This document shows positions 5,238 to 9,572 of a DNA stretch of 19,407 bases, piece after piece. The stretch is taken from the IMG/VR virus record IMGVR_UViG_2619619132_000004; one strand, written 5' to 3'. Made by a program: the position numbers and the translations under genes. Within the stretch, counting starts at the first letter, position 1. Each line of letters begins with the position of its first letter. This DNA comes from a virus. Lineage: Duplodnaviria; Heunggongvirae; Uroviricota; Caudoviricetes. The notes under the pieces were generated by a model. That model did no database searches. It saw only the letters and a list, made by a program, of their open reading frames with translations, and was not told the origin of the DNA.

Positions 5238-5945
5238 TTACCAGCTATGTGATGACCAGAACACTCGCCCTATGATTCTTACGTTTTTGTAGAATTCTTC
5301 TCTGTTCATTACTTCATCAGGATACTCTTCGCGGTTTATCGATCTGATAATTACCGATGTTGGCGTGGCTATGAGCGTTTTTACCCTTAACAAATCAGCT
5401 TGGCAAATTGCATATGTTTTACCATCCCTGATGCTCGTATCTTGCGTGTTTACCCCCACCACATCACCATCATGGAGTGTTGGCTCCATGCTTTGCCCAA
5501 CAACCCTGACCAACTTTGCCGCTTTTTCTGGAACTCCCATTTTTTTCAGGTAATAGCGCCTAAAAACTAGAGAGAATTCTGCGGACTCCTCCAATGCACA
5601 ACTTCCTCCGCCAGCTGAAAGTGAAATATTTAGAAGGGGGAGCGCAACAAATTCGTCATTATCATTTTGATGATCATCCCAGGCGATAGCTTTTAAAGAT
5701 GATTCCCGAGCATTAGATGGCTCTTCTGCGCTCTGTGGTCTCATTGACCCTATACCAGAGCTTAGCCATTCAGGGCGAACTCTTAACGCGTTGGCTAATT
5801 CGACCATTTTACGTGATCCGGTTGTTTTACCAGATGACATCTTTTGTATGGCTGGTTGTGATACCCCCACCATGTCTGCAAGTTGTGCTTGTGACAACCC
5901 GGCTGAACTCATGGCGGCATTTAGTCTTTCTGCGAATGTTTTCAT
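5238..5945 (-). CDS. cI: CI-type prophage repressor (N-terminal HTH, C-terminal S24 LexA-like peptidase)
   Basis: HTH segment LSQAQLADMVGVSQPAIQKM; Ala-Gly cleavage site (SLSAGGG); GQSMEP serine motif and downstream Lys. Divergent from cro. Confidence 0.85.
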   Translation of the reverse strand: MKTFAERLNAAMSSAGLSQAQLADMVGVSQPAIQKMSSGKTTGSRKMVELANALRVRPEWLSSGIGSMRPQSAEEPSNARESSLKAIAWDDHQNDNDEFVALPLLNISLSAGGGSCALEESAEFSLVFRRYYLKKMGVPEKAAKLVRVVGQSMEPTLHDGDVVGVNTQDTSIRDGKTYAICQADLLRVKTLIATPTSVIIRSINREEYPDEVMNREEFYKNVRIIGRVFWSSHSW

Positions 5946-6055
5946 ACCTGTAATCTATAACCACGGTTATCAAAAGTAAAACAACAATTGTTATTGCTCT
6001 GGTGTATAACTCATGTTATTTTTGGTTATGCTTTATTTGCTGTAGAGGTATGCTC
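5946..6055. promoter_or_regulatory. OR operator / PR-PRM promoter region between cI and cro
   Basis: 110 bp divergent intergenic region with dyads ATAACCACGGTTAT (5957..5970) and AACAATTGTT (5983..5992) and a further GTTAT...GGTTAT element (6014..6028). Confidence 0.6.
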
Positions 6056-6280
6056 ATGAATTTAGTGATTCAGCGAGCCTTGAATATTGTTGGCAGTCAA
6101 AAACGACTTGCAGCTGATTGCGGCGTATCACAGCCCGCTGTTCATAAATGGTTGCGAGGCGGAAAAGTTTCTCCTGAAAAAGTTTTCGCTATCGTTAATG
6201 CCACCAATGGTCAGGTTAAGGCTTACGAAATTCGCCCGGACTTACCGCACCTGTTTCCTCATCCGAACCAGGCTGAATAA
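6056..6280 (+). CDS. cro: Cro-like HTH regulator (74 aa)
   Basis: GAGG RBS 7 nt before ATG 6056; HTH motif QKRLAADCGVSQPAVHKWLRGG. Confidence 0.75.
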   Translation: MNLVIQRALNIVGSQKRLAADCGVSQPAVHKWLRGGKVSPEKVFAIVNATNGQVKAYEIRPDLPHLFPHPNQAE

Positions 6281-6287
6281 GTAACAC

Positions 6288-6328
6288 CGCTCTTTAACAT
6301 TGCTGGTCGTTCACCTCTAACAGGGTGA
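6288..6328 (+). promoter_or_regulatory. nutR candidate: boxA CGCTCTTTAACATTG plus boxB hairpin TCACCT-CTAACA-GGGTGA
   Basis: Located between cro and cII as in lambda; shares boxA and loop motif CTAAC with nutL. Confidence 0.6.
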
Positions 6329-6396
6329 GCAAACATCAGTGGCAAACCCATTGGGGATTGCCGCTTAACCCCATATCAATATAGGAAAATTAACAA

Positions 6397-6693
6397 ATGT
6401 CACAAACAAGTTACAGCAAACTGTCACAGCGCGATATCGATCGCGCTGAAACGGATTTACTTATCAACCTGTCAGCTCTGACGCAAAGGGGACTGGCGAA
6501 GATGATTGGCTGCCATGAATCGAAGGTCAGTCGTACCGACTGGCGATACATCGCGGCGATTTTATGCGCGTTCCAGATGGCATCTGATATCAGTCCGATC
6601 AGCCGGGCTTTCCAGCATGCCATTAACGTTCATGCAAATAAAAAACGTCCGGTTGGGGCCGGACGTTCTGAGCAAATCCTGATGAACATCTGA
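6397..6693 (+). CDS. cII: CII-like transcriptional activator (98 aa)
   Basis: C-terminus NKKRPVGAGRSEQILMNI resembles lambda CII (NKKRPAATERSEQIQMEF); HTH in the centre; position after cro/nutR. Confidence 0.75.
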   Translation: MSQTSYSKLSQRDIDRAETDLLINLSALTQRGLAKMIGCHESKVSRTDWRYIAAILCAFQMASDISPISRAFQHAINVHANKKRPVGAGRSEQILMNI

Positions 6694-6756
6694 TATTCAG
6701 GCAGGGCATGGAGCAATACACGGGAATAATTCTGCCACATCTGGAAGAATTTCGCC

Positions 6757-6913
6757 AGCAACAACACCAACCGCAGCAGCCTGAAGCCGATTGGGTTAAC
6801 CCGGAGATACCGGGACCGTCTGTGAAGATGTGCAGTCACACCAATGTGCAGTCACACCAACCGCAGCAGCCTGAAGCCGATTGGGTTAACCCGGGAGATA
6901 CCGGGACCGTCTG
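6757..6913 (+). repeat. Two tandem degenerate copies (6765..6822 and 6855..6913) of a roughly 60 bp segment also found inside the O-like gene (7603..7688)
   Basis: CACCAACCGCAGCAGCCTGAAGCCGATTGGGTTAACCCGG(G)AGATACCGGGACCGTCTG twice, plus a 16 bp tandem ATGTGCAGTCACACCA x2 between them. Confidence 0.8.
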
Positions 6914-6946
6914 CGGTATGGAGTAAATCTTGTATGCGAGGGGACT

Positions 6947-8029
6947 ATGCGTAATTACGCAACAATTTCACCTCAGTTCTGGTTAGGCGATACAGGGCGA
7001 AAACTCAGGAAGTCTGGTCCGGAATGTATGGTAGTGGCGTTGTATATGATGACCTCGCCTCATTCCAATATGCTGGGCCTTTATTACCTGCCTGTTTTGT
7101 ACATTGCTCACGAAACCGGACTTGATCCTGAAGGGGCTTCTAAGGGGCTTCAAATGGCTTGCGAGGCTGGTTTTTGCAGCTATGACCATGATTCTGAGGT
7201 TGTATGGGTGCATGAAATGGCAGCATGGCAGGTTGGTGAATCGCTGAAACCTGGCGATAACCGTTGTGCTGGGGTAAGAAATGAATATTCCGCGTTGCTG
7301 GAAAATCCTTTTTTATCATCCTTTTATGATAGATATAAGGATGATTTCCACCTGGATGTCAGACGTGAATCATGTCGGAAAATTGAAGCCCCTTCAGAGC
7401 CCCTTTCAAGCCAAGAACAGGAACAGGAACAAGAACAGGAAAGGGATAAAACCCTTCTGGTCCATGGCGAAAAAATCGCCACGGACCCACAGGGGGATTT
7501 TTGTCCTGTTCTGACTGAACGTCCAGGACCAGCTGGCACGACACCGGAAGCAGATTCCGGGCGTTGTGTGCAGCAGGTGCTGATCGTCGAACCGGAGCAA
7601 CAACGCCAACCGCAGCAGCCTGAAGCCGATTCCGCGATGAGCGGGAAGCCGATTGGGTTAACCCGGGCGATGCCGGGACCGTCTGCGGGACGAGTTGATT
7701 ATCCTGACGTGTTCGAACGGGTCTGGCGTGAATATCCGCATCGGGCAGGGTCAAACCCGAAGAAATCCGCGTTCAATGCCTGGAGGGCCAGATTACGCGA
7801 AGGGGTGTCACCGGATGTCGTGCTGGATGGCGTGAGGCGTTACGCAAGATACCTGGAGGCTACCGGGAAAGCGGGAACTGAATTTGTTCAGCAGGCATCG
7901 ACGTTTTTTGGCCCGAACAGGAATTTCGAAAATCCGTGGTCGCTGCCGAAGGCTGGCGCAGTCAGCCTGCGTTGCGTGAATCACATTTCTGAACCGGACA
8001 CCGAAATTCCGCCGGGTTTCAGGGGGTAA
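6947..8029 (+). CDS. Phage replication initiation protein (functional analogue of lambda O), 360 aa, with internal EQ repeat
   Basis: GAGGGG RBS before ATG 6947; sits between cII and the DnaC-like loader; contains the repeated segment 7603..7688 and an (EQ)n run at 7411..7440. Confidence 0.6.
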   Translation: MRNYATISPQFWLGDTGRKLRKSGPECMVVALYMMTSPHSNMLGLYYLPVLYIAHETGLDPEGASKGLQMACEAGFCSYDHDSEVVWVHEMAAWQVGESLKPGDNRCAGVRNEYSALLENPFLSSFYDRYKDDFHLDVRRESCRKIEAPSEPLSSQEQEQEQEQERDKTLLVHGEKIATDPQGDFCPVLTERPGPAGTTPEADSGRCVQQVLIVEPEQQRQPQQPEADSAMSGKPIGLTRAMPGPSAGRVDYPDVFERVWREYPHRAGSNPKKSAFNAWRARLREGVSPDVVLDGVRRYARYLEATGKAGTEFVQQASTFFGPNRNFENPWSLPKAGAVSLRCVNHISEPDTEIPPGFRG

Positions 8030-8035
8030 TCAGCC

Positions 8036-8776
8036 ATGAAAAACATTTCGACAGGAGGGATTCTTGAACGGGTGCGCCGTCTGGCACCACCGCACGTGGC
8101 AGCACCGTTCCGGACGACCGACGAATGGCGGGAATGGCAACTGGCTGAGGGCCGTAAGCGCAGCGAGGAAATTAACCGCCTGAATCATCAGGCGCGGGTT
8201 GAAAAAATCCTGAACCGTGCGGGCATCCAGCCGCTTCACAGGAAGTGCTCATTCGGGAACTACCGGGTGCAGAACGACGGTCAGCGCCATGCTCTGAGCC
8301 AGGCGAAATCCATTGCCGATGAATTGATGACCGGTTATACAAACTTCGTGTTCAGCGGGAATCCGGGAACCGGAAAAAATCATCTGGCGGCGGCTGTGGG
8401 TAATCGTCTGCTGAATGCCGGTAAATCCGTGATAGTGGTCACCGTGGCGGATGTGATGAGCGCGTTACATGCCAGCTATGACGACGGACTGTCAGGGGAA
8501 AAATTTTTGCGTGAACTGTGCGAAGTGGACCTCCTGGTTCTTGACGAAATTGGCATCCAGCGTGAGACGAAAAACGAGCAGGTGGTACTGCACCAGATTG
8601 TTGACCGCCGGACGGCATCACTGCGCAGTGTCGGGATGCTGACAAACCTGAATCATGCCGCAATGAGCAAGCTTCTTGGTGAGAGGATTATGGACCGGAT
8701 GACCATGAACGGTGGTCGTTGGGTGAATTTTAACTGGGAGAGCTGGCGGTCAAACGTTGGACGTCAGGGTATGTGA
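8036..8776 (+). CDS. DnaC-like helicase loader / IstB-type ATPase (246 aa)
   Basis: Walker A GNPGTGKNHLA and Walker B LLVLDEIG; GGGGG RBS; immediately downstream of the initiator gene. Confidence 0.85.
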   Translation: MKNISTGGILERVRRLAPPHVAAPFRTTDEWREWQLAEGRKRSEEINRLNHQARVEKILNRAGIQPLHRKCSFGNYRVQNDGQRHALSQAKSIADELMTGYTNFVFSGNPGTGKNHLAAAVGNRLLNAGKSVIVVTVADVMSALHASYDDGLSGEKFLRELCEVDLLVLDEIGIQRETKNEQVVLHQIVDRRTASLRSVGMLTNLNHAAMSKLLGERIMDRMTMNGGRWVNFNWESWRSNVGRQGM

Positions 8777-8801: not shown

Positions 8802-9572
8802 ATGGAAACCGTATTGCATGCACTGAAAGCGATGGGAAAAGCCAATTCTGTTGAACTGGCGGCGCGGCTTGATATCAGCCGTGAAGAAGTTCTCAACGAA
8901 CTGTGGGAGCTCAAAAAAAATGGCGTTGTTGATAAAACGGGTCACACCTGGTTTCTGGCTGTCGAAGGTGAAGCCGGGGTAACCGAAGGGCAGGCACTGC
9001 AACCTGAAGCGCCGGATGTGGTAACCGAAGAGGTCGCTCCAAAAGTTACCGCAGACATGATGATTGAGTTTATCGATCAGGATGGGGCTAAAACGTGTGA
9101 GGAACTGGCGGGGAAGTTCGGTGTCAGCACTCGTAAGGTTGCTTCCACGTTGGCGGTGGTAACAGCAACGAGACGCCTGGTACGCGAGATCAGCAACGGA
9201 AAATTCCGTTACAAAATGCCTGATGTCGAAAACGGCGATTTGAGCGCTTTATCATCGCAGAATAAGCAATCACACCATGACGCAGAAAACAGCGCGGCAG
9301 GCGATGAAATGAATCGTTTTCCGTTGGCATCAGAGAGCACGGCAAAGGCCAGTACAGATGAGTTTATCCGAGAAGTTCCATCATTCACCGAAAAATCTGC
9401 CAGTTCGGTGATGCTTCCATCGCTGCATGCTGCCAGTCGAGAACTTCGTCGCGCCAAAAAACAGGTCCAGAAGTGGGAGCGAGTCTGCGCCGCGCTGCGG
9501 GAGCTGAACAAGCACCGGGATATTGTTCGACAGATTGTCGATTCATCCGGTCGTATTGTGTCGGAAAAGTGA
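8802..9572 (+). CDS. Hypothetical protein (256 aa)
   Basis: Long ORF with ATG start, co-directional with the replication genes; N-terminus looks like a winged-helix fold but no family was recognised. Confidence 0.5.
   Translation: METVLHALKAMGKANSVELAARLDISREEVLNELWELKKNGVVDKTGHTWFLAVEGEAGVTEGQALQPEAPDVVTEEVAPKVTADMMIEFIDQDGAKTCEELAGKFGVSTRKVASTLAVVTATRRLVREISNGKFRYKMPDVENGDLSALSSQNKQSHHDAENSAAGDEMNRFPLASESTAKASTDEFIREVPSFTEKSASSVMLPSLHAASRELRRAKKQVQKWERVCAALRELNKHRDIVRQIVDSSGRIVSEK

Follow-up and report, generated by a model that had tools for sequence, protein, structure and literature searches.

The replication region and its repeats

The window, meaning the whole stretch of 19,407 nucleotides that was analyzed, is an Eru4-type lambdoid Stx-like prophage with the gene order cI, cro, cII, a small ORF, an O-like replication initiator and a DnaC-like helicase loader. 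The Eru4 replication region of Stx phages is represented by Shigella phage 75/02 Stx (NC_029120) in a paper that classifies proteins only and in which a term search finds neither "repeat" nor "iteron" (Fagerlund et al. 2022, PMC8951638). This phage and the window share 98% identity from cII through the repeats and the initiator into the beginning of the DnaC-like gene. The region is framed by the following features:

6397–6693, plus strand: cII (Pfam Phage_CII, E = 6.5e-26), bounding the repeat-holding spacer on the left
6642–6669, minus strand: intrinsic terminator for an oop-like antisense RNA, lying within the cII 3' end (terminator scan)
6694–6756, no strand assigned: unique part of the cII–initiator spacer, containing the ATG of the small ORF (6708) and found in all relatives
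6708–6926, plus strand: 72-aa ORF across the upstream repeat copies (phrog_2751; PHROG match only)
6947–8029, plus strand: O-like replication initiator, comprising an N-terminal domain, the candidate origin, a linker and a C-terminal domain (phrog_1701, phrog_3729 and phrog_270, replication proteins)
8036–8776, plus strand: DnaC-like helicase loader, the partner of the initiator and directly 3' of it (Pfam IstB_IS21 and Bac_DnaA; NCBIfam PRK12377, E = 8e-148)

Neither the initiator nor its N-terminal domain matched a family in Pfam or NCBIfam, and a sequence search of the PDB with the initiator matched DnaT over the last 25 residues only. The unique spacer, in which the promoter of the oop-like RNA presumably lies, is 94% identical to that of a related locus, L088. 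Rfam yielded only sub-threshold matches over 5900–8100, including a weak one to AgvB on the minus strand at 6640–6701. No plus-strand promoter-like site was found in a scan of 6300–7100, the repeat array itself being empty, and RNA folding of 6694–6960 gave z = -0.19 and thus no structure signal.

The first-pass annotation had described a unit of roughly 60 bp that occurs upstream of the O-like gene and recurs within it, and the copies lie where it put them:

6757–6822, plus strand: upstream copy 1 of the linker-derived unit, without the 23-bp segment and with a 1-nt deletion (CCCGG-AGATACC)
6828–6859, plus strand: 16-bp sub-repeat ATGTGCAGTCACACCA, twice, an exact tandem duplication between the large units that occurs 1, 2 or 5 times in other genomes
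6855–6916, plus strand: upstream copy 2 of the unit, without the 23-bp segment
7596–7688, plus strand: intragenic copy (the source) of the unit in the linker-coding region, with 23 extra bases at 7632–7654

Copy 1 was correctly located, although its homology begins 8 nt further left than the 6765 given, at 6757. The units measure 58–66 bp, and their copies are 97% identical over 36 nt and 92–95% identical over 41–44 nt. At the near-identical locus L005, the upstream region matches the gene with blastn E values of 1e-10 to 1e-16, far beyond chance. The extra 23 bp of the intragenic unit and its two exact copies of the decamer GAAGCCGATT (7622–7631 and 7645–7654) are as previously reported; each upstream copy has a single decamer. 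About 770 bp separate the upstream from the intragenic units. The period of the upstream units is 90 bp in the window and 113 bp in L088, and there is no short array inside the units. The 16-bp ATGTGCAGTCACACCA duplication had gone unmentioned before. The homology may extend further, since the array can be related to an intragenic TGTGCAG about 30 nt further left, but this relation is weak: it consists of a 7-nt match and a resemblance to the L011 allele (QSHQLQQPEAD versus QSHQPQQPEAD).

A candidate origin inside the initiator gene

The ori of phage lambda lies within gene O, where the parts coding for the N- and C-terminal domains meet, and is made up of four iterons, an A/T-rich tract and a palindrome. 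A comparable set of elements is found in the initiator gene of the window:

7131–7151, plus strand: iteron pair A, AAGGGGCTTC twice at an 11-bp period (from sequence repeats and homologues)
7385–7407, minus strand: iteron pair B, GAAGCCCCTT and GAGCCCCTTT, with an 11-bp period and the opposite orientation to pair A (from sequence repeats and homologues)
7415–7452, plus strand: A-rich (GAACAG)n tract adjoining the iterons, probably the unwinding region
7459–7487, no strand assigned: palindrome GGTCCATGGCG-A7-CGCCACGGACC, right of the A-rich tract; L011 and Tritos have it too

Conservation of the iteron and A-rich parts extends over about 70 homologous loci. At least two motif hexamers occur at the position of pair A (+165 to +225) in 59 of 71 distinct homologous loci, and at least two copies occur at that of pair B (+415 to +500) in 61 of 71, against a background of 0.3 per kb. 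The orientation of pair B is forward in 12 loci, reverse in 50 and mixed in 7, and this variation implies that it is the DNA that is conserved and not the peptide. Pair B is a probable candidate for the initiator-binding core of the origin. An A-rich tract follows the iterons in all 14 relatives inspected, with a repeat number that varies even between close relatives. The AAGGGGCTTC motif tracks this type of N-terminal domain (61/71 loci), and the iterons, A-rich tract and palindrome sit where the N-terminal domain gives way to the C-terminal one: homology to the Tritos initiator, whose N-terminal domain is unrelated to that of the window, starts at residue 165, directly past the A-rich tract. 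The family-wide layout of a lambdoid origin, with iterons, A-rich tract and palindrome at the domain junction, is therefore found at 7131–7487.

The working origin is most likely made up of the AAGGGGCTTC iterons (7131–7151 and 7385–7407), the A-rich tract and the palindrome (7415–7487), as judged from layout and conservation. Literature searches for the iterons of this module and for the iteron sequence returned nothing relevant and no description of an origin. The likeness to lambda extends from the 11-bp-period repeats at the end of the N-terminal domain (7385–7407) through the A-rich tract and the palindrome to the helicase-loader gene downstream. Unlike in lambda, there is a second iteron pair, 250 bp further upstream in the region coding for the N-terminal domain (7131–7151). 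The 60-bp unit stands outside the shared layout, in DNA that codes for the linker, about 110 bp further right. In addition, the initiator has no similarity to lambda O that is detectable in Pfam, and the loader is DnaC-like, while that of lambda is P.

Source, copy number and rearrangement of the unit

Comparison with relatives places the ancestral site of the unit inside the initiator gene and indicates that the intragenic copy is the source of the upstream ones, since distant relatives have the unit in the gene and none has it upstream. Nine relatives with initiators about 70% identical (L011–L018 and L020) carry the intragenic unit, including a 24-bp EADSAIQR repeat, and in Tritos (L085) and vB_EcoS-640R1 (L086) the unit is inside the gene too; an upstream copy is found in none of them. 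Among 80 homologous loci, upstream matches to the linker are restricted to the near-identical lineage. DNA homology to Tritos begins about 50 bp to the left of the intragenic unit, at about 7548, and the window is 100% identical to L088 to the right of the unit and diverged from it to the left. Mosaic breakpoints thus occur at or beside the intragenic unit.

Wider scans added little. The core of the unit had three matches among GTDB species representatives, in unrelated taxa, which were taken as chance without inspection, and a 16-mer scan of metagenomes gave mostly noise. The two hits with a 182-bp spacing, L148 and L192, were set aside as an unrelated environmental repeat. That MEQYTGIILPHLEEF could be an N-terminal remnant of a former initiator is speculative; a protein search gave no longer protein starting in this way.

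The upstream copies are a nested, unstable variable-number repeat. Among loci that are otherwise about 99% identical in DNA, one large unit is present in L007, L089, L095, L098, L110, L111, L134 and L195, two in the window and about 35 other loci, and three, with a 90-bp period, in L250 and L251. In L088, where the period is 113 bp, Tandem Repeats Finder gives 2.7 units, or about three. The 16-bp sub-unit is single in L252 and L253 and occurs five times in L254. At least one upstream copy is kept in almost all members of the lineage, and the only forms observed without a copy are deletions in which the initiator gene is destroyed as well.

The variants carried by the units are specific to each lineage. 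All three upstream units of L088, as well as its intragenic copy, have CCTGATGCC and the 23-bp segment, whereas every copy in the window has CCTGAAGCC; the GAT versus GAA difference and the state of the 23-bp segment are shared among the copies of each of the two. Both lineages have the same inter-unit junction (GAAG plus 2 x 16 bp). In the two lineages compared, the sharing of variants between upstream copies and their own intragenic copy points to concerted evolution. L088 is the sole truly diverged lineage, so that few changes underlie the arguments from conversion and dN/dS. Selection for matching sequences is another possible source of apparent concerted evolution.

One genome lineage has clearly lost the N-terminal domain and the origin through recombination between the upstream and intragenic units, and so, it appears, has one metagenome contig. 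In L087 and its sibling H67 an upstream unit is joined to the intragenic unit, and RefSeq lists the L087-type gene as a pseudogene "missing N-terminus". L149 has a second junction with another crossover point; it is a contig of 2.2x coverage and a possible misassembly. The deletion form was also considered as the ancestral arrangement and rejected: the L087 fusion is out of frame, with upstream-type sequence on its left and intragenic-type sequence on its right.

The upstream array: scar, binding sites or gene?

Why are there copies of initiator DNA in front of the initiator gene? The array is probably a recombination scar, an ectopic and unstable copy of the DNA coding for the initiator linker. 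This was one of the options raised in the first-pass annotation, and it gains from the findings that the unit is ancestral in the gene and upstream in this lineage only and that copy number varies among near-identical genomes. In the proposed course of events, linker-coding DNA would have been copied between the cII/oop region and the ribosome-binding site of the initiator in one Eru4-type, Diegovirus-like lambdoid lineage. Unequal crossing-over or slippage would then alter the number of large units (1–3) and of 16-bp sub-units (1, 2 or 5), while gene conversion would keep the upstream units like their intragenic source. An occasional crossover between upstream and intragenic copies would delete the N-terminal domain and the origin, leaving a prophage unable to replicate. 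The array itself would be neutral. The ancestral source site, copy-number polymorphism, shared variants and recombination products that mark a segmental duplication are all present. Partial gene duplications and scars at mosaic junctions are familiar from lambdoid phages, as are variable-number tandem repeats homogenized by gene conversion from bacteria, and the array resembles these in its single origin in one lineage, its copy-number polymorphism, its concerted evolution, its deletions between direct repeats and its spurious ORF derived from the frame of the source. It differs from such scars in that the copied segment is internal to the adjacent downstream gene and the direct repeats stand on either side of the DNA-binding domain and origin, so that recombination between them specifically disables replication.

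The other options raised, extra initiator-binding sites or a relocated or duplicated origin, find no support, as the lambda-like origin position is filled by AAGGGGCTTC at an 11-bp period in about 70 homologues. The unit itself makes a poor origin, since it lies about 110 bp beyond the origin palindrome and is common to Tritos-type initiators with an unrelated DNA-binding domain and other iterons (GTCACG). It is very unlikely that the units are extra iterons, whether they formed an additional or enlarged origin or controlled copy number by pairing with the intragenic copy in the manner of plasmid handcuffing, even though the repeats flank the DNA-binding domain of the initiator, GAAGCCGATT agrees with the iteron GAAGCCCCTT at 8 of 10 positions, another clade of the initiator family has true iteron copies just 5' of the gene (-45 to -13), and upstream and intragenic units evolve together. 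No unit contains AAGGGGCTTC with one mismatch or fewer, and the GAAGCCGATT motifs are shared with the Tritos-type initiators along with the unit. Iterons are short repeats in helical register, adjacent to an A/T-rich tract, that track the DNA-binding domain. The units, however, recur at 90 or 113 bp; the (GAACAG)n tract adjoins the AAGGGGCTTC repeats and not 7596–7688 or the upstream copies; and homologues of the N-terminal domain, about 70 of which have iterons at fixed positions, lack an upstream unit. The initiator gene is intact with one, two or three units alike. Iteron plasmids do have control iterons outside the origin (P1 incA; handcuffing of the F and RK2 type), and here too a sequence from near the origin is repeated across the other side of the initiator gene in variable number, but the units lack the origin iteron motif, come from coding DNA and are common to phages with a different DNA-binding domain. 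Could the array instead serve another factor? Each of the three units contains GGGTTAACCC, a perfect 10-bp palindrome that the rest of the 19.4-kb window lacks, as well as a CCCGG-N6/7-CCGGG inverted repeat, and these could be a candidate protein-binding site. A functional cis-element of this kind, whether for a dimeric regulator at GGGTTAACCC, for the spacing between the oop promoter region and the start of the initiator, or as homology for swapping cassettes of N-domain and origin, is unlikely. The retention of at least one copy by nearly all members of the lineage and the mosaic breakpoints at or next to the intragenic unit are consistent with it; against it, the palindrome is confined to the lineage, with GGGTAGTCCC in its place in L011 and Tritos, no further GGGTTAACCC copy in the window suggests a regulon, and the array arose in a single event and is the most diverged and most length-variable region of the module. 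A specific version, in which the array is under selection and a phage or host protein bound to the GGGTTAACCC or CCCGG-N-CCGGG palindromes, upstream and intragenic, loops out the N-terminal domain and the origin, is quite improbable. If true, initiation of replication or expression of the initiator would be under a control tunable by copy number, and selection, in place of neutral gene conversion, would keep the units matched.

The ORF at 6708–6926, which had been suspected of being an artefact of the repeats, is probably just that, a by-product and no conserved gene. It reads QPQQPEAD in both upstream copies, in the frame of the initiator, bearing out the earlier remark that the repeats preserve this frame. 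Its variants are 37, 42, 46, 51, 58, 62, 72, 76, 88 or 102 aa long, in several frames, with about 28 constant residues. Between the window and L088 the first 28 codons have 5 nonsynonymous changes and 0 synonymous ones, as against 2 and 9 in cII (Fisher's exact p ~0.005, on small counts). The varying length and frame together with this pattern of substitution argue that the ORF is not a conserved gene. It is highly doubtful that the ORF is a real small-protein gene (phrog_2751) arisen by partial duplication, perhaps encoding a leader peptide coupled to initiator translation. Several phage and RefSeq records list the ORF as a hypothetical protein, it belongs to a PHROG family, the 90-bp period leaves its frame open through two or three units, its ATG lies 14 nt past the cII stop, presumably about where the lambda O gene starts relative to cII, and in some variants its end, ATGCGTAA, overlaps the initiator start codon. 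Yet it matches no Pfam or NCBIfam family, its Shine-Dalgarno sequence is a weak AGG 6 nt 5' of the ATG that is changed in L088, and in L088 the period of 113 bp is no multiple of three, the ORF stops after 37 codons, and RefSeq annotates no CDS there.

The 72-aa "hypothetical protein" of phrog_2751 that annotations list for Eru4-type Stx phages, as well as for many E. coli genomes, is thus probably not the product of a gene, and the repeats are unsuited to origin annotation. For this replication module, which occurs in Stx1 phages, the AAGGGGCTTC iterons, the A-rich tract and the palindrome within the initiator gene offer a concrete candidate origin. The nested variable-number repeat is a possible strain-typing marker of the phage lineage. 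The bracketing repeats, finally, provide a simple and observed route to the loss of replication, which bears on prophage decay and on the inducibility of Stx phages.

Layout of the replication region

Gene order in the window is that of a lambdoid early-right region, and the DNA from ~6380-6390 to 8100 is 98-99% identical to that of Escherichia phage PhiR5_2, phiSTEC1589-Stx1c and the Shigella phages POCJ13 and 75/02 Stx. The same region is found in 81 of 5,426 complete E. coli genomes. The Eru4 replication type of Stx phages is represented by 75/02 Stx in a paper where a term search for 'repeat' and 'iteron' gives zero occurrences (PMC8951638). A Pfam search assigned the initiator to no family; PHROG replication-protein families do match it.

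Features of the region
5238-5945, minus strand: cI-like repressor
6002-6280: Cro/YdaS-like regulator
6397-6693: cII
6708-6926: 72-aa ORF
6757-6822: upstream copy 1 of the repeat unit
6855-6916: upstream copy 2
6947-8029: replication initiator, 360 aa
7131-7151: iteron pair A
7385-7407: iteron pair B
7415-7452: A-rich tract
7459-7487: palindrome
7596-7688: intragenic copy, with 23 extra bases at 7632-7654
8036-8776: DnaC-like loader
8802-9572: DUF1627 protein

In E. coli, dnaC comes after dnaT, an order paralleled by the DnaC-like loader 3' of the initiator. The C-terminal 25 residues of the initiator (336-360, window 7952-8026; …SEPDTEIPPGFRG) match the very C-terminal end of DnaT, the E. coli primosomal protein (PDB 2ru8, 6aep, 9zbt; E about 0.01), which hints at a loader-contact tail common to the two proteins.

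Source and spread of the repeat

The first-pass annotation had noticed a segment duplicated upstream of and inside the initiator gene, and this is confirmed: pairwise, the copies are 92-100% identical across 26-44 nt, with E-values as low as 1e-16. The intragenic copy does carry 23 extra bases and two decamers, the former bracketed by the latter (GAAGCCGATT). An exact 16-bp tandem duplication (6828-6859) sits between the upstream copies.

Which copy came first? The source is the intragenic copy. Nine loci with initiators about 70% identical (L011-L018, L020) contain the orthologous stretch within their genes; its DNA is about 90% identical and includes both decamers, spaced 24 bp. The stretch is likewise present in Tritos and vB_EcoS-640R1, and nothing resembling the unit occurs upstream of the gene in any of these loci. 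The Tritos initiator is homologous to the window protein over residues 165-360 only, its N-terminal domain being unrelated. Because the relatives have the stretch only inside the gene, and because of this unrelated domain, the unit is ordinary linker-coding DNA associated with the protein's C-terminal half, and the upstream copies are a feature derived in one lineage. Compared with L011 and Tritos, the linker of the window lineage (window 7636-7684 against L011 3195-3245) is shifted in frame twice, -1 and then +1, the second shift compensating the first, and reads KPIGLTRAMPGPSAG versus their EADRVVPESTGQSVG. The upstream ORF translates copy 2 in the older frame (EADWVNPGDTGTVCG), so the local double frameshift explains the reading frame seen there at first. 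The linker peptide has gone from READRVVPESTGQSVG in L011 and Tritos to SGKPIGLTRAMPGPSAG, in DNA that is still alignable, and appears to be under hardly any constraint.

How the first copy arose can be pictured by two routes of two steps each, both of which fit the data. The leader-to-linker segment might have been tandemly duplicated and the first, truncated gene copy then deleted, or a foreign N-domain/origin cassette might have inserted into the resident linker, after which the resident N-terminal part was lost. Mosaic breakpoints are indeed located in this area: Tritos DNA homology to the window begins at about 7548, and L088, the locus of E. coli 23CRST049, has a boundary at the unit.

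Once established, the upstream copies form an unstable nested tandem repeat, varying within DNA that is otherwise about 99% identical. The initiator gene is intact in every locus fetched for checking these arrangements.

Arrangements of the upstream array among homologous loci
One large unit: L007, L089, L095, L098, L110, L111, L134, L195
Two large units: the window and about 35 loci
Three large units, 90-bp period: L250, L251
About three units (2.7, Tandem Repeats Finder), 113-bp period, 23-bp segment kept in each: L088
16-bp sub-unit, one copy: L252, L253
16-bp sub-unit, five copies: L254

L088 and the window have an identical junction between units (GAAG plus two 16-mers), so both arrays go back to one origin. 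The four L088 copies (three upstream, one intragenic) all have the 23-bp segment and CCTGATGCC, the three window copies all have CCTGAAGCC, and the last upstream unit of L088 differs from its own intragenic copy about once per 85 nt. Since the intragenic stretch of L011 and Tritos has GAA, GAT arose in the L088 lineage and was then passed on to its other copies, as gene conversion or re-amplification would bring about, in a comparison of only two lineages. Over 6397-8776 there is a sharp mosaic boundary: from the intragenic unit to the right, through the DnaC-like gene, L088 and the window show 100% identity, versus 96% (cII), 95.8% (linker) and 98.7% (N-terminal domain) to the left of the unit.

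The repeats also mediate deletions. In E. coli SW071611 and its sibling SW07163, an upstream unit's left part is joined to the right part of the intragenic one, in an out-of-frame fusion that has lost the N-terminal domain and origin; RefSeq labels the gene of the SW071611 type a pseudogene 'missing N-terminus'. In a metagenome contig (L149) of only 2.2x coverage there is a second junction, an in-frame fusion whose crossover lies toward the left of the unit; it may be a misassembly.

Is the 72-aa ORF across the upstream copies a gene? The suspicion that it is an artefact is borne out. Among 5.8 billion proteins searched, its homologues make up ten clusters only, all E. coli variants of the same locus, with lengths of 42, 46, 51, 58, 62, 72, 76, 88 and 102 aa and only the first 28 or so residues in common. 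In L088 it ends after 37 codons, RefSeq has no CDS there, and the 113-bp period does not divide by three. When the window is compared with L088, 5 nonsynonymous and 0 synonymous differences fall in the 28 constant codons, against 2 and 9 in the adjacent cII (Fisher's exact p about 0.005, our calculation). Judged by these comparisons, the ORF is not a conserved gene. A minus-strand intrinsic terminator at 6642-6669, inside the cII 3' end, indicates a putative oop-like antisense RNA, whose promoter, we infer, would lie in 6720-6760; Rfam AgvB, a prophage sRNA, gives a weak, sub-threshold match at 6640-6701, minus strand (20.5 bits, E = 0.72). This promoter might be what keeps the DNA of the constant part conserved.

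The probable origin

The 7-mer AGGGGCT, or its complement AGCCCCT, occurs at fixed positions in N-terminal-domain homologues down to about 50% identity. Cluster 1, at about +185 and +196 from the gene start, is forward in nearly every locus, with at least two motif hexamers in 59 of 71 distinct loci; cluster 2, two or three copies at about +440 to +465, is forward in 12, reverse in 50 and mixed in 7, with at least two hexamers in 61 of the 71. Outside the gene the motif has a background density of 0.3 per kb. Position stays the same even where orientation is reversed, so conservation acts on the DNA and not on the encoded peptide. These iterons, AAGGGGCTTC, have an 11-bp period and form two intragenic clusters about 255 bp apart (L005-L084). 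CGAAGCCAAG and the A-rich (GAACAG)n tract come after cluster 2 in 14 of 14 relatives printed, and close relatives have the palindrome besides. At the corresponding position, Tritos carries five GTCACG repeats with an A-rich tract, so the iteron type goes with the N-terminal domain and the module boundary falls at the A-rich tract. Iterons, A-rich tract and palindrome (7131-7487) probably make up the real origin of the initiator family, lying within the initiator gene as the origin does in lambda.

The (GAACAG)n tract (7415-7441), which encodes EQEQ…, is a second small variable repeat, within the probable unwinding region. It differs by whole 6-bp units among the 98-99% identical phages: compared with the window, phiSTEC1589-Stx1c and POCJ13 lack one unit and 75/02 Stx has an extra one. 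A close relative (L010, IMGVR_UViG_2740892231_000013) has three iterons, not two, in cluster 1 (+185..+213) and an initiator ORF that ends after 103 aa, consistent with 11-bp iteron slippage frameshifting the gene.

What the repeats mean

Are the upstream copies extra initiator sites, or a relocated or duplicated origin, as had been proposed? The unit has no iteron within one mismatch, it lies about 110 bp beyond the origin palindrome, and the gene holds a better origin candidate elsewhere, all of which speaks against the proposal for this repeat. Upstream initiator sites are nevertheless a valid idea for the family, since a separate clade (L021, L022, L032, L033, L041-L062) has one or two extra iterons at -45..-13, overlapping the ribosome-binding region, a hint of autoregulation or of an extended origin; no such copies occur in the window lineage. 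The unit could instead bind some other factor: every copy has the perfect palindrome GGGTTAACCC, which occurs nowhere else in the window, and nearly all lineage members keep at least one unit. Such a role is possible, but we consider it improbable. The remaining suggestion, a recombination scar, is the one favored by the intragenic source, the unstable copy number, the concerted evolution and the deletion products. The evidence thus supports reading the array as a partial gene duplication that evolves in concert and varies in copy number like other variable-number tandem repeats, a known kind of element of which this is a new example. Two useful results come with it: the annotation can be corrected, and Eru4-type Stx phages gain a candidate origin open to testing.
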